DNA of 64,000 bases, taken from the NCBI GenBank assembly GCA_963676515.1, contig OY781061.1:660776-724775 (forward strand). The letters are read 5' to 3'. How positions within the stretch are numbered: the stretch's first letter is position 1; every line of letters begins with the position of its first letter. The notes below the pieces were generated by a model. It was given only the letters and a program-made list of their open reading frames with translations, did no database searches and was not told the origin of the DNA. Source of the stretch: Candidatus Cloacimonadota bacterium. Lineage in GTDB: Bacteria > Cloacimonadota > Cloacimonadia > G963667145. Positions 2,698 to 39,914 of the stretch are shown piece by piece. The translations under genes were made by a program, and so were the position numbers.

Positions 2698-3630
2698 TTA
2701 CTTATTAAAAGATTTAATGGTTTTCATCAATCCATCTTCCGCTAAAATTGAGAATGGACCACCAAGAACCTTAGAGATCTTTTTATTAGAAACTACATAA
2801 TTTTCTGTCAATTTCTGCAATCTTACTGTGTTCAAAGGGAGATGCAAAATCGTTCCAATTTTTGCACCCCAAATAATCAGCGACTTAGGTATTTTTAATA
2901 ATCTAGGTCTGATTCCTATAGCTTTTGAAATTATAGATATTAACTTATTCGTTGAAATAGCTTCATCATCAGCTATATTATAGGTTCCATTGGTTACACT
3001 ATTTTCTATAAAATATTTGAATGCAAAACATAAATTACCTACAGATACAAAAGAGCGACTATTCTCGAAAGAAGCCAAAGGCCAAGGAATACCCTTTGAA
3101 ACAATTTTATATAAAAGATTAAGATTACCTTTATTGCCAGGACCGTGAACCATAGCGGGTCTAAAAATATAGAGACTCTTTTGAGAAGAAATCTCGATTG
3201 AATTAAGATAATCTTCTGCCATTACCTTAGATTTACCATAAGCAGTAACAGGATTAGGCTTTGCCAATTCTGTTAATTCTCCTTCAACAACATCTGCTAC
3301 AGCTTTGACAGAACTCATCATAAAGAATTTGGATGCTGTTGATTGATTATACCAATCAAAGATTTTCTTTGTTAAACCATAATTGACATCAATATAAGCT
3401 TGTTCGTCCGAACTATTTTTTAAATCATGAGCCTTACCAGCTAAATGAATAACAGCATCCATATCTTTAATTGCAGACAAATTCTCCCAAGAGTATGTTT
3501 TTTCAACTCCTTCAATAGGATTTGATATAATGTCTAAACCAAATAATTTAAAATTTTCATTTGAGCTGAAATATTGAACAAGGTTTGTCCCTATAAAACC
3601 AGAAATACCTGTTATTAGTATGTTTTTCAT
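2698..3630 (-). CDS. NAD-dependent epimerase/dehydratase family protein.
   Basis: 310 aa. N-terminal GxxGxxG (ITGISGFIGTNL), an SDR-type extended fold. One-base gap from the downstream gene. Confidence 0.65.
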   Translation of the reverse strand: MKNILITGISGFIGTNLVQYFSSNENFKLFGLDIISNPIEGVEKTYSWENLSAIKDMDAVIHLAGKAHDLKNSSDEQAYIDVNYGLTKKIFDWYNQSTASKFFMMSSVKAVADVVEGELTELAKPNPVTAYGKSKVMAEDYLNSIEISSQKSLYIFRPAMVHGPGNKGNLNLLYKIVSKGIPWPLASFENSRSFVSVGNLCFAFKYFIENSVTNGTYNIADDEAISTNKLISIISKAIGIRPRLLKIPKSLIIWGAKIGTILHLPLNTVRLQKLTENYVVSNKKISKVLGGPFSILAEDGLMKTIKSFNK

Positions 3631-4736
3631 TTATATAAAGCTAATGTTTTTTCTATTACACTATCTATAGAAAATTCTCTTTCTGCCAATTTTCTAGATG
3701 CTTCACCCATTTTAATTCTCATAGATTTATCTTTTGCTAATTTCAAAATTTTATCTGCCAACAGCTCGTGATTCTTAATCGGAACTAAATAACCATTAAT
3801 CGAGTCTTGGACACATTCTCTACAACCTGGAGTATCTGTTGTTACTATGGGTCTCCCAATAGCACAAGCTTCTATCAATGATTTAGGCAAACCTTCGCGA
3901 TATGAAGGTAAAACAACAATATCAGCATTTATATATTCAATACTCATATCGTTACTATATCCTTTCCACTCAACACCACATTCTTTTTCAAATTTGTATA
4001 ACTTATTTGTTGAAACAGAACTAAGATTTTGATCATCATTATCTCCAACTAATATAAATCTGATATTAGAAAATCGCTTATTAACAATTTTCGCTGCTAA
4101 ACAAAATTCTTCAACTCCTTTTGTATAAAGCATTCTTGCTGGAAATAACACAGTTAATATATCCTTTTCTACTATCGGAATTGACTTATATTTATTATGA
4201 ATATCTACTCCTGATCCTTTAATTAAGTATGTTAAAGATTTATCATTTAATATACTTAATTTTTTAAACACATCTAAATCATCAGGATTTTGGAATATTG
4301 ATTTCACACTACCATGAAACCCTAATTTAAGCAATTTAGAAAAGAGTCTTTGTTTTAATGTAATTTTATCTGTAGTGAAAAAATAACCTAATCCACTAAT
4401 TGCATTTATTGTTATACAATTTTTAAAAAACCGAGTTGAAATGCCCCCATAAAGACAAGTTTTTAACGCAACATTATGAACAACATCAGGTTTACATCTA
4501 TTTATTAGTTTGAAAATTGTTATAAAAGTTTTAACTTCAACAACTGGATTAATACCTGAGCGTTGTAATTTAATAGGGATATATTTTAAGCCATAGCTTT
4601 CAATCTCTTCTTTTTTACCAGTATCACCTGCAATTACTGTAACATCGTATCCATCTTTTTTAGCTCTCAAAGCAATTGGTAAACGATGTGATAAAAAAAA
4701 CCAATCAACATTAACAATTATAAATAACTTTTTCAT
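3627..4736 (-). CDS. Glycosyltransferase, GT-B fold (GT4 family, WbuB-like).
   Basis: 369 aa. C-terminal EGLPKSLIEACAIGRPIVTTD matches the GT4 E-x7-E region. Sits next to the fnl genes, as L-FucNAc transferases typically do. Confidence 0.65.
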   Translation of the reverse strand: MKKLFIIVNVDWFFLSHRLPIALRAKKDGYDVTVIAGDTGKKEEIESYGLKYIPIKLQRSGINPVVEVKTFITIFKLINRCKPDVVHNVALKTCLYGGISTRFFKNCITINAISGLGYFFTTDKITLKQRLFSKLLKLGFHGSVKSIFQNPDDLDVFKKLSILNDKSLTYLIKGSGVDIHNKYKSIPIVEKDILTVLFPARMLYTKGVEEFCLAAKIVNKRFSNIRFILVGDNDDQNLSSVSTNKLYKFEKECGVEWKGYSNDMSIEYINADIVVLPSYREGLPKSLIEACAIGRPIVTTDTPGCRECVQDSINGYLVPIKNHELLADKILKLAKDKSMRIKMGEASRKLAEREFSIDSVIEKTLALYK

Positions 4737-4749
4737 TATTTTACTCTTT

Positions 4750-6795
4750 TCAATTTTTATCCAAGATTTCTACGAATCTGTTTTCAAGAAATTTCACAAC
4801 TTTCAAAGAACCAGTTTTAGATAAATGCCCTCCATCACTAAAATATATTTCATTATTCTTCTGTCTTAGACAAACTCCATCTTTGCAAAAAGCATCAGAA
4901 GGGTCAATAAAGATTATGTTCTCATTAGACTGAAAATAATCTTTTAAAAATTTATTAAATAAAATTCGATTATGCTTAAAAGTTGAAATTGTTGGAACAA
5001 GACCTAGTAAATATTTTGGACGAAGCAGCTTTTCTATATAATTCAATTCCGAACTGTTCGATGATGGTGTCTCTCCAATAATTATAAAGACTCTGTCAGA
5101 ACCTGACATATTATGAAATTCCCCAATCTTCCGAGCAATTATTTTCCATCCTGTGGAATCATTTTTAATTTTTTTGTATTTTTTCTCAAATTCATCCCAA
5201 GTTTCACATAAGGCAATTTGATCCACCCAAGAATGGCTTAAAATAACTATAGAAGAAGGATGATTATTAATAAACTCCAAATTCTCTTTAAATAGTTTTT
5301 TACTAGTCTCAGAATATCCATCTCTATCATTACGAATGATTTCAGGAAGTTTTAAAGTAGAAAACCAATTTGATATATATATATTCTGTCTATTTTTTTT
5401 AACCATAACTGAATCCAAACCATATAGATAATGTGCTGCATGAGAATCTCCTAACCAAATCATATCTGGCTCTATTCCCTCTTTTGGTTGTTTTCCTACC
5501 CACCCTACTTTATATCCTGCCCCCCCCCAATTATTTTTATGATAATCTTTAGGTACGCCAATCTTTTCTATAAGCACTAAATTCTCATCACTTAATCGCC
5601 ATAAGCACCCTTGAGCATAATTAACTTTTAGTTTAACAATATAAACAGATAAAATAGCAATAATAAGCATTAATAGTAGTGACCTATTCGATTTAATGCT
5701 AAACTTTGCTGTTTTATACCTTAAAGAATTTTCATAATATTTATAGATCAGCGATGAGAGCAAAATCATGACAACAAACATTGCTATTTGTTCCATTGGG
5801 TTAAATTCTCCATCAAAGAGGTAACGATAAAATACAATAACAACCCAGTGGATTAAATAGAGAGTATAACTTATTTCCCCAATATACCTTAGAAACTTAT
5901 TGTTAAAAATGAATTTCAGGTGTTTTGAGGGAGGAAATAACAAGAGTAAACCTGCTCCTATACATGGAAATAAATTAAGAGAACCTAAATAGGGCGTATT
6001 TTTGTTGAATATCATTGCAAAAGCAACAATCATAGTTAACCCTAATAAATTTAGGCTTAACTTAAAATATTCTGATTTTATTTTTTGCACTTGTACAAGT
6101 GCAATTATGCCTCCTATGAGAAACTCAAACATTCTAAAAGGAAGTAGGTAAAATTGTAATGAAGATACTCCTGATGAAATGTCACCTTTAGGAAGGAAGA
6201 AATTAGCAAAATTACTAGGCACGCCACATTTAGAAGTGTAAATTGTAATAAAAAGACTGAATGCAAATATAGCAGACATACTAATTATCACTCCCCTTTT
6301 CTTTTTTGAAAACAATTTCATTAAAAGAAGCAGTGTGACCGGATAAAGTAGATAAAATTGTTCTTCTATTCCTAAAGACCAGGTATGAAGCAACGGTTTA
6401 AAATGTGATGCAATATCAAAATAATCTGAGAGCCCTAAAAAATGAAAATTTGATAGAGCGACAGAACTCATAAACATTGATTTTGTTGCATTCATAAAGT
6501 CGGAAGGAGAAAACGCCAAAAATGTTAGAATGAATACTAAGGAAATTGTTAAAAAAAGGGTGGGCATGAGTCGCCTAACTCTACGAACATAAAAAGTCTT
6601 AAAATTGATTTTCCCAGTTTGCACAAATTCGTGATTCAACAATCTTGTAATTAAGAAACCACTTATCACAAAAAATACATCAACCCCTATAAATCCACCT
6701 TGGAATAGACTTAAATCAAGATGATATAAAACAACTAATAATACTGCTACTGCTCTTATTGAATCGATATGACTCAAATAACTCATTTTTTTCAT
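4750..6795 (-). CDS. Membrane acyltransferase-3 domain fused to a C-terminal SGNH hydrolase domain (OafA/OatA-like O-acetyltransferase).
   Basis: 681 aa. N-terminal multi-TM AT3 region (VLYHLDLS...GFIGVDVFFVISGFLITR). C-terminal GDSHAAH (SGNH) region. Confidence 0.75.
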   Translation of the reverse strand: MKKMSYLSHIDSIRAVAVLLVVLYHLDLSLFQGGFIGVDVFFVISGFLITRLLNHEFVQTGKINFKTFYVRRVRRLMPTLFLTISLVFILTFLAFSPSDFMNATKSMFMSSVALSNFHFLGLSDYFDIASHFKPLLHTWSLGIEEQFYLLYPVTLLLLMKLFSKKKRGVIISMSAIFAFSLFITIYTSKCGVPSNFANFFLPKGDISSGVSSLQFYLLPFRMFEFLIGGIIALVQVQKIKSEYFKLSLNLLGLTMIVAFAMIFNKNTPYLGSLNLFPCIGAGLLLLFPPSKHLKFIFNNKFLRYIGEISYTLYLIHWVVIVFYRYLFDGEFNPMEQIAMFVVMILLSSLIYKYYENSLRYKTAKFSIKSNRSLLLMLIIAILSVYIVKLKVNYAQGCLWRLSDENLVLIEKIGVPKDYHKNNWGGAGYKVGWVGKQPKEGIEPDMIWLGDSHAAHYLYGLDSVMVKKNRQNIYISNWFSTLKLPEIIRNDRDGYSETSKKLFKENLEFINNHPSSIVILSHSWVDQIALCETWDEFEKKYKKIKNDSTGWKIIARKIGEFHNMSGSDRVFIIIGETPSSNSSELNYIEKLLRPKYLLGLVPTISTFKHNRILFNKFLKDYFQSNENIIFIDPSDAFCKDGVCLRQKNNEIYFSDGGHLSKTGSLKVVKFLENRFVEILDKN
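5520..5528 (-). repeat. Homopolymeric C9 tract on the + strand (G9 on the coding strand) inside the acyltransferase CDS. Candidate slipped-strand phase-variation tract.
   Basis: Read directly: ctgc-ccccccccc-aatt. It encodes W-G-G-A (TGG GGG GGG GCA) at about codon 422. The flanking CDS is only ~30% GC. Confidence 0.7.
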
Positions 6796-7018: not shown

Positions 7019-8197
7019 TCAAAAAAAATCAAATAATTTTTCAAAATCACTTAAATATTCTGTGTAATTAAAGGTTTTATTCGATTCACATTCTAGTTTC
7101 ATCTCTTTAATTTTATTCTGGTTGCATAAAAAAACTTGATCAAAAGATTCAATTAATGAATCAATAGTAGAAATATCCATCAGAAAACCATTTATGCCAT
7201 TTATTAAATAATCTTTAACATTACTAGATTCATTAGTTAAAACAGGTATACCTGAAGAGATAGCTTCAACAAATTTGGTTGGGAAGCCTGCTCTTGTTAC
7301 AAGATTGTCCTCCCTTATAAATACTGAAAAGTCTGCTTCTTTTAGTTTATTTATAACATCTTGGTTTGAGAGTCTTCCATGAAATCTAATATTCTCTTTT
7401 AATGAAAATGGTACTGGGTTTTCTGCCCATATTTCATTATAGTCTTCAAATGATATCCCAATAATGTCTAAATAAAAATCTCTATTAGATTTATTCTTAA
7501 TAGCACCTAATGCAGAAATAATTATTCCAAGAGAATCTTTCATCTTACCTCCAGGAGAACCAGCATATATAAATTTAATTGCCGTATTATCTTTTTTTGA
7601 ACCCTTGTTTTCCCATTTAGGATTTTTCAAATCAACCAAAGGAGGGACTAATATCACATTGTTATTTTGAATTGAATAAAAATCATATAAAAACTTACTT
7701 ATAGTAATAATGCCATCTAATTTTGGTTGAATAATTTTCATTCTAAAGAACGAGTCTAATCCTTTTATCGATTTAAAAAGAAGATTACCCTCTGCCAGAT
7801 ACCACTCTGTACAATCAGATATAATTTTAATATTGTTCCTTTTACAATATTTAAAAAGCCGATATAGAGCTAGAGCAGGATAATTATATGCAATAACAAT
7901 CTTAATTTTGTTCTGTTCAATTATTTTTATAATTTCTGATATTTTCCCTAAATATTTTAACCAGCCTATTTTACTATTAGGGTATTTAACTTTATAATCA
8001 GTTCCATAATTTGATGTAGATTTTGTCGCAAAAATATCTCTGCTACAACTTTTATTATGAGAGACTCCTATATAGATTATTTTATAACCTAAAGTACTAA
8101 GTATTTTTCCATTTGACAATACCCTATGAGCAGCAGCATTTAGATCAGGCAATTCAAATCCACCAATGTATAATATATTCCCTTTCGTGTTCTTCAT
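7019..8197 (-). CDS. Glycosyltransferase, GT-B fold (GT4-like).
   Basis: 392 aa. C-terminal FPTKFVEAISSGIPVL (E-x7-E-like) motif. Confidence 0.6.
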   Translation of the reverse strand: MKNTKGNILYIGGFELPDLNAAAHRVLSNGKILSTLGYKIIYIGVSHNKSCSRDIFATKSTSNYGTDYKVKYPNSKIGWLKYLGKISEIIKIIEQNKIKIVIAYNYPALALYRLFKYCKRNNIKIISDCTEWYLAEGNLLFKSIKGLDSFFRMKIIQPKLDGIITISKFLYDFYSIQNNNVILVPPLVDLKNPKWENKGSKKDNTAIKFIYAGSPGGKMKDSLGIIISALGAIKNKSNRDFYLDIIGISFEDYNEIWAENPVPFSLKENIRFHGRLSNQDVINKLKEADFSVFIREDNLVTRAGFPTKFVEAISSGIPVLTNESSNVKDYLINGINGFLMDISTIDSLIESFDQVFLCNQNKIKEMKLECESNKTFNYTEYLSDFEKLFDFF

Positions 8198-26894: not shown

Positions 26895-27905
26895 CTATTT
26901 CTTTTGCAAATTCTCCCAATACCACTCACAAGCTTCTTCTAAACCTTGCTTAACACTATATTGTGGATTGTAATTTAATGTCTCTCTTGATTTGTTTATA
27001 TTTGCCAAAGAATGAGGGATATCCCCTGCTCTATTTGAGCCATGAACTATGTCAACATTAGCAATTCTTGAATCAAATTTTGAAAGATTTCTTTTCAAGA
27101 TTTCAACCAATTCATTCAAATTTGTTCGTTCTCCGAAAGCTACATTAAAGACAGAAAAGCTGTTTTTTTCTACAGATTTCACCTTTTCATAATCAACTAA
27201 TCCTGCACATTGATTTGCTTGAAGAACATTCTCAATGTAAGTAAAATCTCTTGAATAGCTTCCATCACCATTAATCACAGGATTTTCATGCTTCATCAAT
27301 TGCATTACAAATTTAGGAATAACAGCGGCATAAGCTCCATTAGTGTCCTGTTTTCTTCCAAAGACATTAAAGTATCTTAATCCAATAGTTTCAATTCCAT
27401 AGGTATTGTAAAAGTTTTCTGCAATAAGTTCGTCAGTATATTTTGTGATTGCATAAGGAGATAGTGGCTTGCCAATAACATGTTCAACCTTAGGCATATT
27501 TGTTGAATCTCCATAAGTTGAAGAACTTGCAGCATAAACAAATCTTTTTACACCAGCCTCTTTAGCAGCAAAAAGTATTTTTACAAATCCTCCAATATTC
27601 ACATCCGTACTTGTTATAGGATCCACAATAGAACGAGGAACAGAACCTAACGCTGCCTCATGGAAAACAAGATCACAGCCTTCTACAGCCTTTACACAAT
27701 CCTCATAATTTCTAATATCACCTTCTATTAGAGTGAAATTTGAATTAGTTAAAAAAGATTCTACATTATATCTATGACCAGTTGCAAAATTATCTAAACA
27801 AACAACTCTATTATTTTGTTCTAAAAGTTTATTACATAGATTAGATCCAATAAATCCAGCACCACCAGTAACTAAAATCTTTTTATTTTTTATTTCTAAA
27901 CTCAT
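26895..27905 (-). CDS. UDP-GlcNAc(A) C4-epimerase (WbpP/TviC-like SDR).
   Basis: 336 aa. [44 protein letters not shown] is typical WbpP/TviC. Paired with the adjacent dehydrogenase. Confidence 0.75.
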   Translation of the reverse strand: MSLEIKNKKILVTGGAGFIGSNLCNKLLEQNNRVVCLDNFATGHRYNVESFLTNSNFTLIEGDIRNYEDCVKAVEGCDLVFHEAALGSVPRSIVDPITSTDVNIGGFVKILFAAKEAGVKRFVYAASSSTYGDSTNMPKVEHVIGKPLSPYAITKYTDELIAENFYNTYGIETIGLRYFNVFGRKQDTNGAYAAVIPKFVMQLMKHENPVINGDGSYSRDFTYIENVLQANQCAGLVDYEKVKSVEKNSFSVFNVAFGERTNLNELVEILKRNLSKFDSRIANVDIVHGSNRAGDIPHSLANINKSRETLNYNPQYSVKQGLEEACEWYWENLQKK

Positions 27906-27934: not shown

Positions 27935-29236
27935 TTACAATCTTCCGTCAACCTTTTGTCTATCCCAAAGTCCTTTTATATCATAAATTATTGAATCTTT
28001 ACTTTTACTGTATTTATCAATATTAAAATCAATAAATTCATTATGAGATACAGCTAAGACAATGCTATCATACTTGTTTTCTTTAGGTTTATCTATCAAA
28101 TCTAAATTATATTCATGCTTAACTTCATCAACACTAGCCCATGAATCATAAACATCAACATCACATCCAAACGCTTTTAATTCATTAATTACATCTACAG
28201 CTTTTGTATTACGAATATCAGGACAATTTTCCTTAAAAGTAATACCAAGAACTAAAATCTTAGCTTTTTTAACCTTAAGCTCTTTATTAATCATTAATTT
28301 GATAATCTCTGAAACTACCCATTCACCCATACCATCATTCATTCTTCTACCTGCTAATATAATCTCTGGATTATACCCTACTTCCTGCGCCTTTTGAGCA
28401 AGATAATATGGATCAACACCAATACAATGTCCTCCAACCAAACCTGGTTTAAACGGCAAAAAATTCCATTTTGTACCCGCAGCCTCAAGAACATCACTAG
28501 TATCTATTTCAAGTTTATTAAAAATTTTGGAAAGTTCATTTACAAAAGCAATATTTATATCTCTTTGAGAATTTTCAATAACCTTAGCAGCCTCAGCAAC
28601 TTTGATTGAAGAAGCCTTGTGAGTTCCTGCAACAATAACTGATTTATAAATATTATCAACCAATTCTGCAATTTCAGGAGTTGATCCTGAGGTAACTTTC
28701 AAAATTTTTGTAACGGTATGTTCTTTATCTCCTGGGTTTATTCTTTCTGGCGAATATCCCACAAAAAAATCCACATTATATTCCAATCCAGAGACTTTTT
28801 CTAAAACAGGCACACATTCGTCTTCTGTAGCTCCTGGATAAACAGTAGATTCATAAACAACCACATCTCCATTTTTTAAAACTTTACCAACTGTTTCACT
28901 TGCTTTATAAAGTGGAGTTAAAACTGGCCTATTATTCTTATCTGTAGGCGTAGGAACTGTAACTATATAAAAATTAGAATTTTTAATATCCTCAATATCT
29001 GTAGAAAATTTAATCCCTACTTTCTCATTAGATTCTTCAACAACCTTTTTGAGATATGAATCAGAGATTTCAAGAGTGGAATCTTTCCCACTTTTTAACT
29101 CATCAACTCTAGCTTTATTAATATCAAATCCAATAGTTTTGAATTTTCTTCCAAATTCAACCGCTAACGGTAAACCAACATAACCTAATCCTATTACTGC
29201 TATTTTTGGTTCTTTATTTGCTACTTTATTGGTCAT
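27935..29236 (-). CDS. UDP-N-acetyl-D-glucosamine 6-dehydrogenase (WbpO/TviB-like nucleotide-sugar dehydrogenase).
   Basis: 433 aa. KIAVIGLGYVGLPLAVEF N-terminus. Central GGHCIGVDPYY-type catalytic Cys region. Confidence 0.8.
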   Translation of the reverse strand: MTNKVANKEPKIAVIGLGYVGLPLAVEFGRKFKTIGFDINKARVDELKSGKDSTLEISDSYLKKVVEESNEKVGIKFSTDIEDIKNSNFYIVTVPTPTDKNNRPVLTPLYKASETVGKVLKNGDVVVYESTVYPGATEDECVPVLEKVSGLEYNVDFFVGYSPERINPGDKEHTVTKILKVTSGSTPEIAELVDNIYKSVIVAGTHKASSIKVAEAAKVIENSQRDINIAFVNELSKIFNKLEIDTSDVLEAAGTKWNFLPFKPGLVGGHCIGVDPYYLAQKAQEVGYNPEIILAGRRMNDGMGEWVVSEIIKLMINKELKVKKAKILVLGITFKENCPDIRNTKAVDVINELKAFGCDVDVYDSWASVDEVKHEYNLDLIDKPKENKYDSIVLAVSHNEFIDFNIDKYSKSKDSIIYDIKGLWDRQKVDGRL

Positions 29237-29770: not shown

Positions 29771-32700
29771 TTAAAAAGGTTTATAAGAATCCCACCATTT
29801 TTCAGCACCCAAGTCATAGTTAGCATACCTTTCTTCATCAAGACTAGTTAGCTTACTCTTCCAACCACTAAGGTTTATATTGAAAGCTTTAGCAAACATA
29901 AACATAGCACTCATCCATTCAACATTGCCTACATTCCAAGCAGAAATATTACCATTAAATTTCGTTGCCCCAGCAAACATATAATTCATATTGGTGACAC
30001 TGTCTACATCCCAAGAGTTTAAATCCTTATTAAAAGCTTTTGCTCCATCAAACATATAACTCATATTGGTAACGCTACTAACATCCCAGCCATTAATGTC
30101 GCCGTTAAACATGGTATCATTAAAAAACATAAAGCTCATATTTGTAACACTGCCTACTTCCCAAGAATTCAAATTCTGATTAAAAGTTTCTGCTCCGGAA
30201 AACATATGAAGCATATTTTCAACTTTACTTACATTCCAATTAGAAATATTACTATTAAATAAAATTGCATTAGAAAACATACCTTGCATAGTCTGCACAT
30301 TGCTCACATCCCAGCCACTGATATCCCCATTAAATTCCTTAGCTCCACTAAACATATAATTCATAATCGTTACATTGCTTACATCCCAGCCACTGATATC
30401 TTGATTGAATGTTGAATCACTACTAAATAAAGATTCCATATTAGTGATCCCAGCTGTATTGACCTGAGTGACATCATCGCGATCGGCTATCATAGCTTTC
30501 AAGGTGTTTAGCGTGATATATGTCGTGGCACTGTCGATACTGGAGAAAGCAGATTGCCCAGCGTCGCTATAAGCTGCTATTTTGTAGAAGCGTTTGCTGT
30601 TTTCACTGAGGCTGGTGATGCTGTAGTTGGAGACAAGCCCCACGGTTGTCGTGTCATAGCTCCCTTCACTACTGGTGGCTGTACACAGGTAATAACCTGT
30701 AGCTCCAGCGACTTCGCTCCAAGATATGTCTATTTGTGTAGGGCTCGCGGCACTATCGGACAAAATGGTAGGAGTAGCAACAATTGTGGTAACACTTACG
30801 CTATCAGAAAGACTGGATGTATCCACAGCGTTATAAGCTTGGATCTTGTAAAAATGCTTGGAGTTGGCATTAAGTCCTTTGTTTTGGTAAATGATGTCAT
30901 CAATATCACCGATTGGACTGAAATTTTCACCACTAGAGTCTGCATGATATATCGTGTATCCTTCTGCCCCGCTAACTTTGTCCCACGATATGTCTATTTG
31001 GGAAAAGCTCTTGGCTTCCGCAAAAACATTGGCAGGAGCGTTTACATTTATTTTCCCTATTACAACTGCAGAGAAATCGGATACACCGCGTCCATGATAG
31101 GATCGTACCTTGTAATAATACTCTGTGTCTGAATTGAGTCCCATGCTGCTGTAGAATGTATCGGTTCTAACAATTGAGTCGCCATAGTGCTCTCCATCGT
31201 CTGATATGTAGAGATAATAGCCATCTGCTCCCGCGGCTGTGCTCCACGATATTCTTATTTGGGAAGAGTCTACCGCACTCGCCTTTAGGTCAGCTGGAGC
31301 GGCGACAATCGTGGTGTCGCTCAATATGTCAGAGAAAACGCTGTAACCGTTGCCGTTGTAAGCCTTCAGCTTGTAAGTGTAGACTGTGTAAGCGGAAAGC
31401 CCTGTGTCGCTGTAAGAGTTGCTACTGATGTCGCCAACACTACCGTATTCTCCATTAGTGGTATCTAATCGATAAATCTTGTATCTGGCTGCTCCAGGGA
31501 CGGTGTCCCATCGCAAATCTATGCGTGATGCACTAACGACACTGCTCTCAAGATTGCTCGGAGCTAAGACGATTGTGGTGTCGCTTATTCCGCTGGAGAA
31601 CGCACTGTAACCGCTACCATTATAAGCCTTCACCTTGTAAAAGTACTCTGTGTTTGCGGCGAGTCCTGTGCTGTAATAAGTGGTGCTATTGGTGTCGCCG
31701 ATTGAAATGTAGTCTCCACTAATGGTATCTAATCGGTATATTGCATAGCTGGTTGCTCCAGCGACTGCGTGCCAACTCAGGTTTATCTGTGATGCACTCA
31801 CGACACTGTCGGTGAGATTCGTGGGAGACGCGACAATCGTGAAAATCCTCAATGTGTCGGAGAAATCACTATAGCCTTTCGTATTATGAGCACTCACTCT
31901 GTAGAAATACTTCGTGTTTGCAGTGAGACCTGTGTCGCTGTAGGTGGTGACATTCCCCAAAGTTGTGTCGCTGTATGTCCGCCCGCTGTCTACAGAGAAC
32001 GAGAGGCGATAGCCTGCCGCTCCATCTACTTCGCTCCATTTCAAATCTATGCGTGAAGCACTCACGACGCTGTCGGTGAGATTGCTCGGAGCTAAGACGA
32101 TTGTGGTGTCGCACAATATGTCGGAGAAGGCACTATTGCCTTTCCCGTTACGGGCTAACACCTTGTAGTAATGCACACTGTTTGCAGCGAGTCCTGTGTC
32201 GCTGTAGGAAGTGTCATTGCCAAGAATTGTGTCGCTGTAAGCAGTGCCATCTTCTGAGTAAGAGAGAGAATAGCTCGTTGCTCCATCGACTGTGTTCCAA
32301 AACAGCTTTATCTGTGATGAACTAATGACACTGTCGGTGAGGCTCTTAGGAGCATCAATAATCGTTGTGTCGCTCACGGTGTTCGAGAAAATACTGTAGC
32401 CGTTGTTATTATAAGCTAGTACCTTGTAGGAATAGACGGTGAAAGCGGAAAGCCCTGTGTCGCTGTAAGAATTGCTATTGGCAACACCAACACTGTCGTA
32501 GTCTCCACTAGTGGTATCTAATCGGTAAATCTTATAGCTGGCTGCTCCAGGAACGGTGTCCCATCGCAAATCTATGCGTGAAGCACTGACGACGCTGTCG
32601 ACAAGGTTAGCAGGAGCGGCAACGATTGTGGTGTCGCACAATATGTCGGAGAAGGCACTATTGCCTTTCCCGTTACGGGCTAACACCTTGTAGTAGTGCA

Positions 32701-35700
32701 CACTATTTGCAGTGAGTCCTGTGTGGCTATAGGTGGTGACATTGCCCAATGCTGTGTCGCTGTAGTTTGTGCCATCGCCTGAGTAAGAGAGAGAATAGCT
32801 CGTTGCTCCATCGACTGAGTTCCAAAACAGTTTTATCTGTGATGAACTAATGACACTGTCGGTGAGGCTCTTAGGAGCATCGACAATCGTGGTATCGCTC
32901 AATATGTCAGAGAATTCACTGTCGCCATTTCCATTGTAAGCTAAAACTTTGTAATAATGCACACTATTTGCAGCGAGTCCCTTGTCGCTGTAGGTGGTGA
33001 CATCCCCCAAAGTTGTGTCGCTGTATGTCCGCCCGCTGTCTATAGAGAACGCGAGGCGATAGCCTGTCGCTCCCTCTACTTCGCTCCATTTCAAATCTAT
33101 GCGTGACGCACTGACGACGCTGTCGGCTAGATTACTCGGAGCTGCGACGATTGTGGTGTCACTCAATGTGCCGGAGAATTCGCCAAAGCCTTTTGTATTA
33201 TAGGCTCGCACTTTGTAGAAATACTCTGTGTTTGCGGTGAGCCCTGTGCTGTAATAAGTGGTGCTATTGGTGTCGCCGATTGAAATATAGTCTCCACTAA
33301 TGGTATCTAATCGGTATATTGCATAGCTGGTTGCTCCAGCGACTGTGTTCCAAAACAGTTTTATCTGTGATGAGCTGATGACACTGTCGGTGAGGTTGCT
33401 CGGAGCATCGACCTTCGTGGTGTCGCTCAATGTGTCAGAGAATTTGCTTTCGCCGTTGTTATTATAAGCTAGTACCTTGTAGGAATAGACGGTGTAAGCG
33501 GAAAGCCCTTTGTCGCTGTAGGAGTTGATACTGGCAACGCCAACACTGTCGTATTTTTTACTAGTGGTGTCTAATCGGTAAATCTTGTAGCTGGCTGCTC
33601 CGGGGACGGTGTCCCATTTCAAATCTATCTGTGACGCACTCATGACACTGTCACTGAGGTTGCTCGGATGTGTGACGATTGTGGTGTCGCTTATTACGCT
33701 GGAGAACGCACCGAAGCCTTTTGTATTATAGGCTTGCACCTTGTAGAAATACTCTGTGTTTGCGGTGAGTCCTGTGCTCAGATAATTAGTTTCATTGGTT
33801 GCTCCGATTTTGTTGTCGCCTACATTTATAATTGTGTCCCTATAAATATAATAGCTATCTGCACCAGCGACTGTGTTCCAGTATAGATTTATCTGTGACT
33901 TACTCACGACACTGTCGGTGAGGTTGCTCGGAGCATCGACAATAGTGGTGTCGCTCAATATGTCAGAGAAAATACTATAGCCGTTGCCATTGTGAGCCTT
34001 CAGCTTGTAGAAGTAAGCTGTGTTAGCGGAGAGGTTTTCGATACTAAATGTGGTGCCATCTGTTGTTTCTTTTCGGTCATAATTTCCGCTTATAATTGTG
34101 TCTATATAAACGACATAGCCTGCCGCTCCCTCTACTTCGCTCCAGCTCAAATCTATGCGTGAAGCACTAACGACGCTGTCGGTGAGATTCCTTGGAGGTG
34201 CAACGATTGTGGTGTCGCACAATGTGCTAGAGAACTCTCCGTCGCCTTTGCCATTGTAGGCTAGCACTTTGTAGTAGTGCACGCTATTTGCGAAAAGTCC
34301 TGTGTCGCTGTAGAAAGTGTCGGTTGCCTCTTTCATTGAAGCATATGCTCCATCGCTGATTGTGTCCATGTAGACATAATAGCCAGATGCACCAGCGACT
34401 GTGTTCCAGAAAAGTTTTATCTGTGATGCACTGATGACACTGTCGGTGAGGTTGCTCGGAGCATCGACAATAGTGGTGTCGCTCAATATGTCAGAGATTT
34501 CACTGTCGCCATTGTTATTATAAGCTAGTACCTTGTAGGAATAGACGGTGTTCGCACTGAGGCTTTCGATACTAAAGACGGTGTCTTCTGCGTTCTCTTC
34601 TCGGGTATAGTTCCCATCTCCACTTGTGTCTATATAAACGACATAGCCTGCCGCTCCATCTACTTCGCTCCATTTCAAATCTATGCGTGAAGCACTCACG
34701 ACACTGTCGGTGAGATTGCTCGGAGCTAAGACGATTGTGGTGTCGCTTATTACGCTGGAGAACGCACCGAAGCCTTTTGTATTATAGGCTAGCACCTTGT
34801 AGAAATACTCTGTGTTTGCGGTGAGTCCTGTGCTCAGATAAATAGTGTCATCGGTTGCCCCGATTTTGTTGTCGCCTACATTTATAACTGTGTCCCTATA
34901 AATATAATAGCTATCTGCACCAGCGACTGTGTTCCAATATAGATTTATCTGTGACTTACTCACGACACTGTCGGTGAGGTTGCTCGGAGCGGCGACAATC
35001 GTGGTATCGCTCAATATGTCAGAGAATTCACTGTCGCCATTGTTATTATAAGCTAGTACCTTGTAGGAATAGACGGTGTAAGCGGATAGCCCTGTGTCGC
35101 TGTAGAAATTGCTACTGATGTCGCCAACACTACCGTATTCTCCATTAGTAGTATCTAATCGGTAAATCTTGTAGCTGGCTGCTCCAGGGACGGTGTCCCA
35201 TTGCAAATCTATGCGTGACGCACTGACGACGCTGTCGGTGAGATTGCTCGGATGTGTGACGATTGTGGTGTCGCTTATTACGCTGGAGAACGCACCGAAG
35301 CCTTTTGTATTATAGGCTTTCACCTTGTAGTAATGCACACTGTTTGCGGCGAGTCCTGTGTCGCTGTAGGTGGTGACATTGCCAAGAATTGTGTCGCTGT
35401 AAGCAGTGCCATCTTCTGAGTAAGAAAGAGAATAGCTCGTTGCACCAGCGACTGAGTTCCAATATAGATTTATCTGTGATTTACTCACGACACTGTCGGT
35501 GAGGTTGCTCGGAGCAGCAACCTTCGTGGTGTCGCTCACGGTTTTCGAGAAAATACTGTAGCCGTTGCCATTATAAGCCTTCAGCTTGTAAGAATAGACT
35601 GTGTAAGCAGTGAGACCTGTGTCGCTGTAGGTGGTGACATTCCCCAAAGTTGTGTCACTGTATGTCTGCCCGCTGTCTATAGAGAACGCGAGGCGATAGC

Positions 35701-38700
35701 CTGCCGCTCCCTCTACTTCGCTCCATTTCAAATCTATCTGTGACGCACTGACGACACTGTCGGTGAGATTTCTCGGAGCTAAGACGATTGTGGTGTCGCT
35801 CAGTACGCTAGAGAACTCTCCGTTGCCTTTGCCGTTGTAGGCTAGCACTTTGTAATAGTGCACACTATTTGCGGCGAGACCTGTGTCGCTGTAGGAAGTG
35901 TCATTGCCAAGAATTGTGTCGCTGTAAGCAGTGCCATCTTCTGAGTAAGAGAGAGAATAGCTCGTTGCTCCATCGACTGTGTTCCAGAACAGCTTTATCT
36001 GTGATGAACTAATGACACTGTCGGTGAGGCTCTTAGGAGCATCGACCTTCGTGGTGTCGCTCAATATGTCAGAGAATTCACTGTAGCCGTTGCCATTGTG
36101 AGCCTTCAGCTTGTAGAAGTAAGCTGTGTTAGCGGAGAGACCTGTGTCGCTGTAGGAGTTGATGCTGGCAACGCCAACACTGTCGTAACCTCCTCCAATG
36201 GTGGTATCTCTATAAATTGTGTAGCTGGCTGCTCCAGGGACGGTGTCCCATTGCAAATCTATGCGTGACGCACTCACGACACTGTCGGTGAGGTTGCTCG
36301 GATATGTGACGATTGTGGTGTCGCTTATTACGCTGGAGAACACACCGAAGCCTTTTGTATTATAGGCTTGCACCTTATAGAAATGCACACTATTTGCGAA
36401 AAGACCTGTGTGGCTGTAGGTGGTGACATTGCCCAATGCTGTGTCGCTATAGTTTGTGCCATCGCCTGAGTAAGAGAGAGAATAGCTCGTTGCACCAGCG
36501 ACTGAGTTCCAAAACAGTTTTATCTGTGATGAACTGATGACACTGTCGGTGAGGGTGCTCGGAGCGGCGACCATCGTGGTGTCGCTCAATATGTTAGAGA
36601 ATTCACTGTCGCCATTTCCGTTGTAAGCTAAAACTTTGTAGTAATGCACACTATTTGCAGCGAGTCCCTTGTCGCTGTAGGTGGTGACATCCCCCAAAGT
36701 TGTGTCGCTGTATGTCTGCCCGCTGTCTATAGAGAACGCGAGGCGATAGCCTTTCGCTCCATCAACTGCGTTCCATCTCAAATCTATTTGTGATGCACTA
36801 ACGACGCTGTCGGTGAGATTGCTCGGATGTGTGACGATTGTGGTGTCGCTCAGTGTGCTAGAGAACTCTCCGTTGCCTTTGCCATTGTAGGCTAGCACTT
36901 TGTAATAGTGCACGCTATTTGCGGCGAGTCCTGTGTCGCTGTAGGTGGTGACATTGCCCAATGCTGTGTCGCTGTAGTTTGTGCCATCGCCTGAGTAAGA
37001 GAGAGAATAGCCGTCTGCTCCAGCGACTGTGTTCCAGAAAAGTTTTATCTGTGATGCGCTGATGACACTGTCGGTGAGATTCTTAGGAGCATCAACCTTC
37101 GTGGTGTCAAATAATATGCCAGAAAATTCGCTATTACCGTTACCATTGTAAGCCTTTAGCTTGTAAGTGTAGACGGTGTAAGCGGAAAGGGCTGTGTCGC
37201 TGTAGGAGTTGATACTGGCAACGCCAACACTGTCGTATTTTTTACTAGTGGTATTTAATCGGTAAATCTTGTAGCTGGCTGCTCCGGGGACTGTGTCCCA
37301 TTGCAAATCTATGCGTGACGCACTCACGACACTGTCACTGAGGTTGCTCGGAGCGGCGACGATTGTGGTGTCGCTTACGATGCTAGAAGCTTTACTCTCT
37401 CCGACTGTATTATAAGCTGTCACTTTGTAGAAATATTCTGTGTTTGCGGCGAGACCTGTGTTGCAGTAGGAAGTGCTACTGGTGTCAACTAATAAGTTGT
37501 TGCTGCCTACATTTCCCGTTGTGTCCATGTAAACTCTATAGCGTTCTGCTCCTTCCACTTCGTCCCACGATATGTCGATTCGGGAAGAGCTTTTGGATTT
37601 GGCGGATACATTCGTCGGAGCAGCGACGATCGTGAAGAGACTCAATGTGTCGGAGTAATCACTATAGCCTTTGTAATTGTAGGCTCGCACTGTGTAGAAA
37701 TACTTCGTATTTGCGTTGAGACCTGTGCTGTAGTAGAAAGTGTCCGTGCCGACAGAGGTGTCTATATAAGTTCGCCCGCTGTCTATAGAGTAAGAGACAT
37801 AATAACATGATGCACCATCGACTGAGCTCCAGAACAAGTTTATTTGAGAAGAGTCTACGACACTATCGCAGAAATTGGCAGGAGCGGCGACCATAGTGGT
37901 GTCGCACAATGTGTCCGAGAAGCCAGATTCCCCTGCGTCACTATAAGCTGTGACTTTGTAGGTATAGCTTGTGAAAGCGGTGAGTCCTGTGTCATTGCAA
38001 GAAGTAACCTCGCCAATAAGCGTATGCTTGTAATCGGCACTACTTGGGGATGAGCGATATATTGTGTAGCCATCTGCTCCCTCGACTGAGTTCCAAGATA
38101 AATTTATTTGTGATGCACTGATGACAATGTCGGCGAGACCAGTCGGAGCTAAGACCTTTGTGGTGATGATCAATGTGTCGGAAAATTCACTGTCGCCGTT
38201 GCCATTGTAAGCTAGTATTTTATAGTAATATTTACTATTTGCCGTGAGACCTGTGTCGCTGTAGGAAGTGACCTTCTCGATTGCTGTGTCGCAATAGTTA
38301 TTGCCATCGTCTGCAGATATATAGAGGCGATAGCCTGCTGCTCCATCGACTGCGTCCCATTGCAAATCTATCTGAGAAAAGCTGACGACAGTATCGGAGA
38401 AACCAGCTGGAGGTGCGACGATGGTGGTGTCGCTTGCGATGTTAGCGTAATCTATATTACTACTACCAGCTTTGTTAAAAGCTATTACCTTGTAAAAATA
38501 CTCGGTGTTTGCGGCAAGCTCATTGCTACGATAAGCGGTGTCAGCGGTCTCTCCAATTTTGGTGTAAGTCCCATTACTAAAGTTTGGTGACATGAATACT
38601 CTGTAGCTATCTGCTCCACTGACTACATCCCAAGACAAATCTATCTCTGAGGCGCTTATGGATTTGGCTGTTAGGTTTTCAGGGTTAGTTACATGTATTC

Positions 38701-39847
38701 TTCCTTTTACGATTTGGGAAAACTCGGATGTGTCCACAGCGTTATAGGCTTTTATTTTATAATAATACATTGTATCTGCAGAGGCAACTTTATGACTGTA
38801 AGAGGTGACATTCTCAATAGTTGTAGGGGAATAATTATTGCCATCGTCTGAGATATAGAGGTAATAGCCTGCCGCTCCACAAGTTACAGTCCAAGACAAA
38901 CCTATCTGTGTCGAGTTCAGAACTCTAAGTGAGAGCCCTTCTGGATCCAAGAGTTTTACTCTCGATTTTACGGTGGCAGAAAAGTCTGAACTCCTAGAGG
39001 ATCTATAAGCTTTTAGTTTGTAGGAATATTCTATGTGTGGATCGGACACTGTGTCCGTGTAAAAGAGAACATTGCCGACATCTATCTGAGCGTAAGCCTC
39101 AATGCTGGCAGTATCTTTGTAGAGAGTGTAGCCATCGGCACCATCGACAGCATCCCACGACAAAAATATTTGTGAAATACTTACAGCTTTAGCGGCTAAA
39201 TTGCTGGGAGCTGCGACTATCGTGGTGTCACCTGCGATGTTGGAATATTCACTCTCACCACTTTCGTTATACGCTTTCACCTTATAGAAACAAGCTGTGT
39301 TTGCCTTGAGTCCTGTGTTACTATAAAAATTGCTGTTGACATTTCCAATAGGGTTGTAAGCTCCGCCCAGCGAAGATGATTTGTATATTCTGTAGTTTGC
39401 TTCTCCACTCACTGCGTTCCATGATAAATCTATTCGAGAAGAGCTTATAGCTTTTGCCGTTAGGTTGGTAGGAGTGGAAACAATCGTGATGGCACTTACG
39501 ATATCGGAAAATTCGCTATAACCATCAGCATTATAAGCTGTCACTTTGTAGTAATATTTTGTGTTTGCACTAAGCCCCGTGCTGGAACATAAATTGCTAC
39601 TGACATTGTTAATTTCGCTGTAATCTCCATCAAGAGCTGTTGCTTGGTGTACTTTATAACCTGTGGCTGTGCTCACGACATACCAAGACAAATCTATTTG
39701 CGAAGAATCTACGACAGTCGCCTCTAGATTGGTAGGAGCAGCTGGGAGAATCAGTTCCTCTGCATCGTCGTTTCCAGAAGGGCTGGTGCAGGTGACGAAA
39801 ATGACCAAGCTAAATATGATCGCTAAAAGTTTGAAACAATTCTTCAC
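29771..39847 (-). CDS. Giant surface lipoprotein. Signal peptide with lipobox, then about 30 tandem fibronectin-type-III-like modules, then a C-terminal block of 25-residue BspA/DUF285-type LRR repeats (~7 copies, 29771-30500).
   Basis: ORF 29771-39880 in the track. A GTG at 39847 is preferred as the start. It is preceded by AGAGGA 7 nt upstream and gives MKNCFKLLAIIFSLVIFVTC, parallel to paralog 2 (MKNWLKILVIIFSSVVFVTC). The repeats carry FN3 hallmarks (P-x-L...W...Y-x-[VI]-Y...Y-x-Y-x-V-x-A-x-N). The C-terminus is FNQDISGWDVSNVTIMNYMFSGA x7. Confidence 0.8.
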   Translation of the reverse strand: MKNCFKLLAIIFSLVIFVTCTSPSGNDDAEELILPAAPTNLEATVVDSSQIDLSWYVVSTATGYKVHQATALDGDYSEINNVSSNLCSSTGLSANTKYYYKVTAYNADGYSEFSDIVSAITIVSTPTNLTAKAISSSRIDLSWNAVSGEANYRIYKSSSLGGAYNPIGNVNSNFYSNTGLKANTACFYKVKAYNESGESEYSNIAGDTTIVAAPSNLAAKAVSISQIFLSWDAVDGADGYTLYKDTASIEAYAQIDVGNVLFYTDTVSDPHIEYSYKLKAYRSSRSSDFSATVKSRVKLLDPEGLSLRVLNSTQIGLSWTVTCGAAGYYLYISDDGNNYSPTTIENVTSYSHKVASADTMYYYKIKAYNAVDTSEFSQIVKGRIHVTNPENLTAKSISASEIDLSWDVVSGADSYRVFMSPNFSNGTYTKIGETADTAYRSNELAANTEYFYKVIAFNKAGSSNIDYANIASDTTIVAPPAGFSDTVVSFSQIDLQWDAVDGAAGYRLYISADDGNNYCDTAIEKVTSYSDTGLTANSKYYYKILAYNGNGDSEFSDTLIITTKVLAPTGLADIVISASQINLSWNSVEGADGYTIYRSSPSSADYKHTLIGEVTSCNDTGLTAFTSYTYKVTAYSDAGESGFSDTLCDTTMVAAPANFCDSVVDSSQINLFWSSVDGASCYYVSYSIDSGRTYIDTSVGTDTFYYSTGLNANTKYFYTVRAYNYKGYSDYSDTLSLFTIVAAPTNVSAKSKSSSRIDISWDEVEGAERYRVYMDTTGNVGSNNLLVDTSSTSYCNTGLAANTEYFYKVTAYNTVGESKASSIVSDTTIVAAPSNLSDSVVSASRIDLQWDTVPGAASYKIYRLNTTSKKYDSVGVASINSYSDTALSAYTVYTYKLKAYNGNGNSEFSGILFDTTKVDAPKNLTDSVISASQIKLFWNTVAGADGYSLSYSGDGTNYSDTALGNVTTYSDTGLAANSVHYYKVLAYNGKGNGEFSSTLSDTTIVTHPSNLTDSVVSASQIDLRWNAVDGAKGYRLAFSIDSGQTYSDTTLGDVTTYSDKGLAANSVHYYKVLAYNGNGDSEFSNILSDTTMVAAPSTLTDSVISSSQIKLFWNSVAGATSYSLSYSGDGTNYSDTALGNVTTYSHTGLFANSVHFYKVQAYNTKGFGVFSSVISDTTIVTYPSNLTDSVVSASRIDLQWDTVPGAASYTIYRDTTIGGGYDSVGVASINSYSDTGLSANTAYFYKLKAHNGNGYSEFSDILSDTTKVDAPKSLTDSVISSSQIKLFWNTVDGATSYSLSYSEDGTAYSDTILGNDTSYSDTGLAANSVHYYKVLAYNGKGNGEFSSVLSDTTIVLAPRNLTDSVVSASQIDLKWSEVEGAAGYRLAFSIDSGQTYSDTTLGNVTTYSDTGLTAYTVYSYKLKAYNGNGYSIFSKTVSDTTKVAAPSNLTDSVVSKSQINLYWNSVAGATSYSLSYSEDGTAYSDTILGNVTTYSDTGLAANSVHYYKVKAYNTKGFGAFSSVISDTTIVTHPSNLTDSVVSASRIDLQWDTVPGAASYKIYRLDTTNGEYGSVGDISSNFYSDTGLSAYTVYSYKVLAYNNNGDSEFSDILSDTTIVAAPSNLTDSVVSKSQINLYWNTVAGADSYYIYRDTVINVGDNKIGATDDTIYLSTGLTANTEYFYKVLAYNTKGFGAFSSVISDTTIVLAPSNLTDSVVSASRIDLKWSEVDGAAGYVVYIDTSGDGNYTREENAEDTVFSIESLSANTVYSYKVLAYNNNGDSEISDILSDTTIVDAPSNLTDSVISASQIKLFWNTVAGASGYYVYMDTISDGAYASMKEATDTFYSDTGLFANSVHYYKVLAYNGKGDGEFSSTLCDTTIVAPPRNLTDSVVSASRIDLSWSEVEGAAGYVVYIDTIISGNYDRKETTDGTTFSIENLSANTAYFYKLKAHNGNGYSIFSDILSDTTIVDAPSNLTDSVVSKSQINLYWNTVAGADSYYIYRDTIINVGDNKIGATNETNYLSTGLTANTEYFYKVQAYNTKGFGAFSSVISDTTIVTHPSNLSDSVMSASQIDLKWDTVPGAASYKIYRLDTTSKKYDSVGVASINSYSDKGLSAYTVYSYKVLAYNNNGESKFSDTLSDTTKVDAPSNLTDSVISSSQIKLFWNTVAGATSYAIYRLDTISGDYISIGDTNSTTYYSTGLTANTEYFYKVRAYNTKGFGEFSGTLSDTTIVAAPSNLADSVVSASRIDLKWSEVEGATGYRLAFSIDSGRTYSDTTLGDVTTYSDKGLAANSVHYYKVLAYNGNGDSEFSDILSDTTIVDAPKSLTDSVISSSQIKLFWNSVDGATSYSLSYSGDGTNYSDTALGNVTTYSHTGLTANSVHYYKVLARNGKGNSAFSDILCDTTIVAAPANLVDSVVSASRIDLRWDTVPGAASYKIYRLDTTSGDYDSVGVANSNSYSDTGLSAFTVYSYKVLAYNNNGYSIFSNTVSDTTIIDAPKSLTDSVISSSQIKLFWNTVDGATSYSLSYSEDGTAYSDTILGNDTSYSDTGLAANSVHYYKVLARNGKGNSAFSDILCDTTIVLAPSNLTDSVVSASRIDLKWSEVDGAAGYRLSFSVDSGRTYSDTTLGNVTTYSDTGLTANTKYFYRVSAHNTKGYSDFSDTLRIFTIVASPTNLTDSVVSASQINLSWHAVAGATSYAIYRLDTISGDYISIGDTNSTTYYSTGLAANTEYFYKVKAYNGSGYSAFSSGISDTTIVLAPSNLESSVVSASRIDLRWDTVPGAARYKIYRLDTTNGEYGSVGDISSNSYSDTGLSAYTVYTYKLKAYNGNGYSVFSDILSDTTIVAAPADLKASAVDSSQIRISWSTAAGADGYYLYISDDGEHYGDSIVRTDTFYSSMGLNSDTEYYYKVRSYHGRGVSDFSAVVIGKINVNAPANVFAEAKSFSQIDISWDKVSGAEGYTIYHADSSGENFSPIGDIDDIIYQNKGLNANSKHFYKIQAYNAVDTSSLSDSVSVTTIVATPTILSDSAASPTQIDISWSEVAGATGYYLCTATSSEGSYDTTTVGLVSNYSITSLSENSKRFYKIAAYSDAGQSAFSSIDSATTYITLNTLKAMIADRDDVTQVNTAGITNMESLFSSDSTFNQDISGWDVSNVTIMNYMFSGAKEFNGDISGWDVSNVQTMQGMFSNAILFNSNISNWNVSKVENMLHMFSGAETFNQNLNSWEVGSVTNMSFMFFNDTMFNGDINGWDVSSVTNMSYMFDGAKAFNKDLNSWDVDSVTNMNYMFAGATKFNGNISAWNVGNVEWMSAMFMFAKAFNINLSGWKSKLTSLDEERYANYDLGAEKWWDSYKPF

Positions 39848-39914
39848 TTTTATTCCTCTATTTCCAAAACAATTTCCCAAATAATGTCAACTTTGTTACA
39901 CTTTTGGAATTTGT

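Follow-up and report, generated by a model that had tools for sequence, protein, structure and literature searches.

Phase variation through simple-sequence repeats (SSRs) is textbook biology in Neisseria, Haemophilus, Campylobacter, and Helicobacter. The stretch of DNA analyzed here (64,000 nucleotides of contig OY781061.1 from a Candidatus Cloacimonadota bacterium, referred to below as the window) carries a run of nine G residues within a gene for a fused AT3-SGNH O-acyltransferase in a surface-polysaccharide cluster. Judged from sequence comparisons, this G9 tract is probably a translational ON/OFF switch that makes O-acetylation of a Wzx/Wzy-type surface polysaccharide phase variable. Glycan O-acetyltransferases that are switched by repeats are already established, and the present case is in line with them. 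Its modest novelty lies in the setting, an apparently environmental bacterium in which the nearest relatives of the gene are from marine Flavobacteriaceae, together with the recurrence of the tract at one and the same codon in copies of the gene that have diverged and been shuffled horizontally.

PglI, the O-acetyltransferase of Neisseria meningitidis and Neisseria gonorrhoeae, modifies a surface glycan, has the fused AT3-SGNH architecture (PMC9558356), and in N. meningitidis is phase variable via an intragenic poly-G repeat (PMC10425976). It differs from the enzyme described here in its acceptor, which is a pilin-linked diNAcBac glycan and not a Wzx/Wzy polysaccharide, and in its host, an obligate human mucosal bacterium; the likeness is drawn at the family level from published descriptions, with the sequence relationship assumed. 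OafA of Haemophilus influenzae, the heptose-III O-acetylase of lipooligosaccharide (LOS), is likewise a phase-variable AT3 acyltransferase of a surface glycolipid (PMC9558356), but its substrate is LOS, not a polymerized polysaccharide, and its repeat is a tetranucleotide rather than a homopolymer, according to Fox et al. 2005 as cited in PMC9558356. The O-antigen acetyltransferases OafA and OafB of Salmonella enterica share with the window protein an arrangement of AT3 domain, 11th transmembrane helix (TMH), structured linker, and SGNH domain, as well as the motifs R-X10-H, GG-F/Y-XGV-D, FFXISG, RXXR, GDS, and DxxH. Their sequence identity to it is low, however, and OafB is controlled by an epigenetic switch, marked by phase-variation signature sequences that precede the gene, instead of by a coding repeat (PMC9558356). 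The capsule, LOS, and flagellar glycosylation loci of Campylobacter resemble the window in having intragenic G/C homopolymers in AT-rich surface-glycan genes that are turned ON and OFF by frameshift (PMC6321876). Poly-G/C tracts of at least 7 are used to call phase-variable genes in that genus, and all tracts of at least 8 in strain NCTC 11168 vary (PMC6321876). Campylobacter genomes differ in carrying dozens of tracts each, whereas one was found in 64 kb here, and in the enzymes concerned; the present host also differs in its core GC content of ~47 to 50%.

The G9 tract and the acyltransferase gene

The gene, its domains, the tract, and the stops that slippage would expose are located as follows (positions are those of the window).

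4750 to 6795, minus strand: AT3-SGNH fused O-acyltransferase gene encoding 681 aa, with architecture of the OafA/OafB/PglI type (open reading frame [ORF] and Pfam)
5743 to 6768, minus strand: AT3 domain (Acyl_transf_3, PF01757), residues 10 to 351 (Pfam, E = 6.7e-36)
5623 to 5679, minus strand: last hydrophobic helix, residues 373 to 391, LLLMLIIAILSVYIVKLKV, the proposed 11th TMH (hydropathy only)
5520 to 5528, minus strand: G9 homopolymer (C9 on the plus strand), running from the second base of TGG (W423) through GGG (G424) and GGG (G425) to the first base of GCA (A426); candidate site of slippage, at which G9 would be the ON length
5510 to 5512, minus strand: TAA stop reached after gain of one G (G10); 428-aa product ending in WGGGRI
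5505 to 5507, minus strand: TAG stop reached after loss of one G (G8); 429-aa product ending in WGGQDIK
4786 to 5475, minus strand: SGNH domain (PF19040, the SGNH type fused to AT3), residues 441 to 670, lost in both frameshifted states (Pfam, E = 1.5e-21)
5440 to 5451, minus strand: block I GDSH (G449 D450 S451 H452), which holds the presumed catalytic serine and follows the tract end by 23 codons (motif)
4825 to 4836, minus strand: block V D654-G-G-H657 (DxxH) with the presumed catalytic Asp and His (motif)

On the plus strand, positions 5520 to 5528 read CCCCCCCCC (C9) and are flanked by G (5519) and A (5529). The coding strand over the tract reads AAT AAT TGG GGG GGG GCA GGA, encoding N N W423 G424 G425 A426 G427, and the acyltransferase ORF is the only long ORF that spans it. 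A preliminary description of this DNA had placed a run of nine G on the coding strand near codon 422 of 681, between the AT3 and SGNH domains of a gene of ~30% GC, and had judged a tract of this length improbable at such a composition. This placement is confirmed: the run occupies codons W423 to A426, the two Pfam matches bracket it, and the GC content is 30.5% for the gene and 39.3% for the whole window. The improbability was borne out as well: ~0.03 C9+ runs are expected in 64 kb if bases are independent and 0.04 under a first-order Markov model. This tract is the only G/C run of at least 6 in the 64 kb, the next longest being 5. When the 28.8-kb low-GC locus was simulated with a first-order Markov model, the probability of a longest G/C run of at least 9 was 0.02, a conservative figure in that the training sequence included the tract itself. 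An order-5 Markov simulation was disregarded as circular, its G-run transitions having been learned from the tract.

Every feature of the AT3-SGNH family that can be addressed by sequence is present in the protein, namely, the AT3 domain, its motifs, the 11th TMH with its linker, and the SGNH triad. The AT3 motifs, defined as by Pearson et al. (PMC7448272), are R14-X10-H25, GGFIGVD (residues 33 to 39), FFVISG (residues 41 to 46), and RRVRR (residues 71 to 75), the last containing RXXR as R72-V-R-R75. The TMH1, FFXISG, RXXR, and GG-loop motifs are all at least 90% conserved in the subfamily alignment, and several motifs share their residue numbers with OafA, the RXXR motif being at 72 to 75 compared with R69/R72 in OafA. 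The GG-F/Y-XGV-D loop is specific to fused AT3-SGNH proteins (PMC7448272). By hydropathy, ~50 residues lie between the helix at 373 to 391 and the Pfam SGNH match, which fits the "11th TMH plus linker" of the fused enzymes, and this helix is proposed to put the C-terminal domain outside the cytoplasm. From this architecture and the location of the gene in a polysaccharide cluster, we infer that the enzyme moves an acyl group to an extracytoplasmic glycan.

Both the Pfam layout and the hydropathy place the tract in the linker between the AT3 membrane domain and the SGNH domain, with the W-G-G motif 32 residues past the last helix and 23 codons ahead of the catalytic serine block. The subfamily profile aligns with crystal structure 6SE1, that of the OafB SGNH domain (E = 4e-8), profile position 438 falling on chain residue 38, and W-G-G therefore corresponds in position to the structured linker ("SGNH-extension"). 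A single-sequence phmmer search against the PDB gave no match for the acyltransferase.

The preliminary description had also held that slippage by one unit would truncate the enzyme ahead of the SGNH domain, and the reading frames agree. Loss or gain of one G brings in a stop within 3 to 4 codons, and both products (429 aa for G8 and 428 aa for G10) end upstream of GDSH and lose the entire SGNH domain; G7 behaves like G10 and G11 like G8, and G9 gives the 681-aa protein. Fused OafA/OafB enzymes need both the AT3 and the SGNH domain, and within the SGNH triad of OafA the substitutions S412A and H590A abolish activity and D587A lowers it (PMC7448272). Loss of function on slippage is expected because both domains are required and triad mutants lose activity. 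The structural properties of a contingency gene are found here together: an intragenic G9, to be compared with the cutoff of at least 7 for mutable poly-G/C tracts (PMC6321876); a gain or loss of one unit that shifts the frame and truncates the product; and a dispensable surface-modifying function, that of an accessory enzyme encoded in a polysaccharide cluster. A nonessential surface-modification gene is the typical class of contingency gene.

In the mechanism that we propose, G9 would be a hypermutable SSR that switches by slipped-strand mispairing, at a rate useful to this host, and that is kept by selection. At G9 the gene would be ON and its product the complete 681-aa enzyme. Slippage to G8 or G10 during replication would cause a frameshift and termination 3 to 4 codons on, and the OFF product would comprise the AT3 domain, the 11th helix, and ~35 linker residues without the SGNH catalytic domain, so that the glycan would no longer be O-acylated; a further slip of one unit would restore ON. 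A clonal population would always be a mixture of acetylated and nonacetylated cells, a bet hedge against phages or other glycan-recognizing agents. A locked-ON form of the tract would read TGGGGAGGTGCA, and the locked-OFF form would be G8. If the tract does switch, recognition of the surface polysaccharide by phage, antibody, or lectin would change without regulation, and the gene would provide an entry point for gauging SSR contingency loci outside pathogens.

Tract state among homologues

The exact acyltransferase protein occurs once in ~15 billion sequences, and the window proteins that were found in that collection (encoded at 645 to 1646, 4750 to 6795, 7019 to 8197, 26895 to 27905, and 27935 to 29236) are singleton clusters from one contig; the host lineage is poorly sampled. 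With the exception of one fragment (P0029), the next relatives are at most 65% identical, and the named ones are from Flavobacteriaceae/Maribacter. The preliminary description had set the gene beside phase-variable genes of mucosal bacteria; that framing is not supported by the nearest relatives, which are marine Flavobacteriaceae/Maribacter, where named, and otherwise metagenomic contigs.

The fragment P0029 (432 aa, 77% identity), which comprises AT3 alone, is encoded on contig Ga0366841_1027125 of JGI metagenome 3300033146 (here L001), which carries the closest homologue of the acyltransferase gene, with 77.7% nucleotide and 75% amino acid identity. The L001 gene is called as two ORFs that overlap at the tract site, one of 432 aa containing AT3 and one of 262 aa containing SGNH. 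The site reads AAC AAT T-GGGGGGGG-CAGG, a G8 run at the orthologous position (L001 5268 to 5275); the gene is frameshifted there and bears no other lesion, and adding one G gives a single 684-aa ORF with no further stop. The ratio of nonsynonymous to synonymous substitution rates (dN/dS) between L001 and the window is 0.14 upstream of the tract (N-terminal part) and 0.20 downstream of it (C-terminal part), with dS of ~1, and by these ratios both halves of the L001 gene have been under purifying selection. Since the ratios are this low and the ORF is otherwise intact, the L001 lesion would be recent or reversible rather than a sign of decay. An OFF allele that is intact apart from its tract is what a reversible switch would predict, although a sequencing error would look identical. 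Under the switch reading, "split" AT3 and SGNH pairs annotated at this site would be OFF alleles and not two genes.

Of the roughly 30 homologues that are at least 50% identical, DNA was sampled from 12 lineages at roughly 55 to 75% identity, and the state of the tract is as follows.

G9, gene intact: the window and L098 (P0006, ENA ERZ23498500 scaffold_119241, 61 to 62% amino acid identity)
G8, gene frameshifted: L001
G7 (TGGGGGGGAGCG): L102
Run interrupted (TGGGGAGGTG, TGGGGCGGGG, TGGGGTGGTG, and similar): L096, L097, L099/L100, L101, L103, L104, L105/L106, L110/L111

In a neighbor-joining tree, the window and L001 are sisters and L098 forms a separate deep branch. Candidate ON and OFF alleles are seen between orthologues, the window and L001 being 75% identical, with G9 in the window and L098 and G8 in L001, the one OFF example. 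Tract length among relatives, which the preliminary description had offered as a check on its proposed phase-variation switch, came out in favor of that proposal in that L001 is frameshifted exactly at the site by its G8 and L098 has an in-frame G9. The proposal stands less well on a second point, the interruption of the run in relatives that had been named beforehand as contrary evidence, which was found in 8 of the 12 lineages (e.g., TGGGGAGGTG); because of these interruptions, the tract is not typical of the subfamily at large.

Recent local recombination was considered as a source of the tract shared by the window and L098 and was rejected. Identity between the two near the tract is 0.85 to 0.87, the top of the range for this pair, and is consistent with a locally conserved peptide; the region is not long enough for a transfer to be called.

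Other observations were made on more distant or incomplete copies. In a Spirochaetota metagenome-assembled genome (L003, JBNKTL010000011.1), a homologue of 33% identity reads TAT GGG GGG GCT, a G7 at the same Gly-Gly, and this Gly-Gly site may be prone to homopolymer formation well beyond the close subfamily. In L103 (ENA ERZ650157 NODE_40882, coverage of ~2x), the homologue P0025 is called ~100 aa short at its N terminus and the contig continues upstream; the short call probably reflects a frameshift or an assembly error at another place in the contig, unrelated to the tract. A search with the SGNH half for more split genes recovered only the second ORF of L001 and P0245. The latter was rejected as a split gene: its break is a scaffold gap (a run of N) with no frameshift, and its site is interrupted. 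A scan of genome contigs with a pattern from the full-length alignment gave relatives of at most 43% identity among the matches listed, and a scan of metagenome contigs with the linker-region alignment gave only relatives of at most 42% identity. Plasmid tblastn matches were at most 29% identical, a scan of viral contigs gave three distant and uninformative matches, and a megablast search of the gene against Escherichia coli genomes gave no match.

Switching weighed against other explanations

The main rival account of the tract, possible but less likely, is that it is an incidental and unselected homopolymer. The peptide W-G-G-A-G is conserved in the subfamily at the protein level (G424 is invariant and G425 at least 90% conserved) and forces TGGGGNGGNG in the DNA. 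Because TGG GGN GGN G is forced, two third positions alone separate a tract from no tract, and codon drift would have put G at both. The run would then be a mutational hot spot that is not used as a switch, its OFF variants would be deleterious or neutral, and the G8 of L001 would be a sequencing error or a fresh pseudogene.

A number of points weigh against a switch. The tract is two synonymous changes from a common sequence and could have originated by drift; the probability per gene that both codons are GGG, calculated from Gly codon usage, is ~0.016 to 0.06, and GGG makes up 24% of the other Gly codons of the window gene, which gives the upper value of ~0.06. The run is interrupted in most homologues, and no other candidate SSR was found in the window. 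The sole OFF example, known from a metagenome assembly, could reflect a sequencing error in the homopolymer; the window genome itself is known from a single assembly, so that tract lengths are assembly-level values. Stand-alone AT3 enzymes also exist, as illustrated by the O-antigen acetyltransferases Oac and WbaK, which are AT3-only proteins that function without a fused SGNH domain (PMC9558356), and the inactivity expected of the truncated product is to that extent an assumption.

Against an incidental origin, the tract recurs in two separate branches, with a G7 in a third, despite saturated synonymous sites (dS of ~1). At 11 other invariant Gly columns, GGG accounts for 12.5% of codons, and the window and L001 never share GGG at any of them; because of this, synonymous sites are effectively randomized. 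The probability of a double GGG arising in at least 2 of 11 independent clades is 0.01 to 0.04 at 0.016 to 0.03 per lineage, whereas it rises to 0.13, and the recurrence is not significant, with the GGG usage of the window gene itself (0.058), the highest of the per-gene probabilities. The recurrence is therefore suggestive but short of overwhelming. The remainder of the window strengthens it, since no G/C run there exceeds 5, whereas low-GC simulations usually give 6 to 7; this genome seems to avoid G/C homopolymers, and a merely tolerated G9 would be unusual there. Finally, the sole length variant seen is an exact one-unit change in an intact and constrained gene. Taken with the precedents of PglI and H. 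influenzae OafA, the surface-modifying role of the gene, and the stops that follow directly on slippage, these points lead us to favor the slipped-strand ON/OFF switch.

An improbable alternative is that the tract alters function, or the expression of downstream genes, in place of a simple ON/OFF effect. Slippage at the level of DNA or RNA could produce a protein that consists of AT3 alone and can still transfer acyl groups, as Oac and WbaK do, but the requirement of the fused enzymes for both domains argues against this. A premature stop could instead have a polar effect on the genes that follow (among them those at 3627 to 4736 and 1728 to 2696), which encode a glycosyltransferase, an epimerase, the WecA-like enzyme, and GalE, and so alter the amount or structure of the whole polysaccharide. 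The next gene begins 13 bp past the acyltransferase stop on the same strand, and the intervening sequence has no terminator-like site, which is compatible with cotranscription. There is, however, no sign of transcriptional slippage or polarity, and scans for promoters and terminators around the acyltransferase gene gave results no better than shuffled sequence. It is very improbable that the G9 of the window is an assembly or sequencing artifact concealing a run of another length or an interrupted one: homopolymers are the commonest class of error in long-read assemblies, but an error would more likely break the frame, whereas G9 keeps the 681-aa ORF in frame with all catalytic motifs and the same in-frame G9 is present in an independent metagenomic homologue.

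The polysaccharide cluster and the mobility of the acyltransferase gene

The acyltransferase gene belongs to the following cluster.

645 to 29236, minus strand: co-oriented surface-polysaccharide cluster (gene annotation, composition)

The GC content of the cluster is 27 to 35% (~1.2 to 30 kb), compared with 40 to 54% in the 3' flank and 51% in the first kilobase, and this sharp shift relative to the flanks makes a low-GC island of positions ~1200 to 30000 that suggests a horizontal origin of the whole locus. The cluster encodes a TviB/TviC-like UDP-sugar dehydrogenase and epimerase; FnlA, an FnlB-like reductase, and a WecB-type (FnlC-like) 2-epimerase; several GT4 glycosyltransferases; an EpsG-family polymerase; a pyruvyl transferase; an aminotransferase; an ATP-grasp enzyme; a weakly MatE-like (Wzx-like) membrane protein of 506 aa; a WecA-like initiating transferase; and GalE. 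Because the acyltransferase gene is flanked by two glycosyltransferase genes, its most likely role, given also the architecture of the enzyme, is O-acylation of this Wzx/Wzy-type polysaccharide outside the cytoplasm. The best non-self match of GalE is 68% identical, and matches of the Firmicutes type are 62 to 66% identical. Scans of the window for tRNA genes and Rfam families found none.

The nucleotide similarity between L001 (3998 to 6036) and the window (6798 to 4759), 77.7% over 2,040 bp, extends from border to border of the acyltransferase gene and no further. The genes that flank it in L001 encode glycosyltransferases that are unrelated to those of the window or ~30% identical to them at the protein level. 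The start and stop of homology at the gene borders argue that the acyltransferase gene moves between polysaccharide loci as a unit. As a cassette would be, it is missing from the otherwise similar position of other loci. The L001 locus has a GC content of 26% and contains, at 6070 to 6083, the sequence GGGGGAGGGGGGGG (G5AG8), in the intergenic stretch that separates the frameshifted acyltransferase gene from the GT4 gene after it, ~90 bp upstream of the GT4 start. This G5AG8 could be a second, promoter-type repeat switch in the L001 organism and hints that the L001 host uses poly-G tracts repeatedly.

It is conceivable, though we hold it only as a doubtful extension of the ON/OFF switch, that the acyltransferase gene is a horizontally mobile "plug-in" cassette carrying its own poly-G switch, because homology ends at the gene borders, the tract is kept at the same codon despite saturated synonymous sites, and L001 has the additional G5AG8. 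In that case, SSR-driven switching of glycan O-acetylation would be a transferable trait of free-living, probably marine, bacteria, and the switch of the cassette would likely be an antiphage device rather than a speciality of host-adapted pathogens.

The polysaccharide locus is adjoined by three giant ORFs of ~3,400 to 3,600 aa, all on the minus strand (29771 to 39880, 41193 to 52127, and 53613 to 63992). The ORF at 29771 to 39880, to which the domain scan was applied, contains 23 fibronectin type III repeats and C-terminal DUF285 (BspA-like) repeats, and the three ORFs look like genes for huge surface adhesins or S-layer-like proteins.

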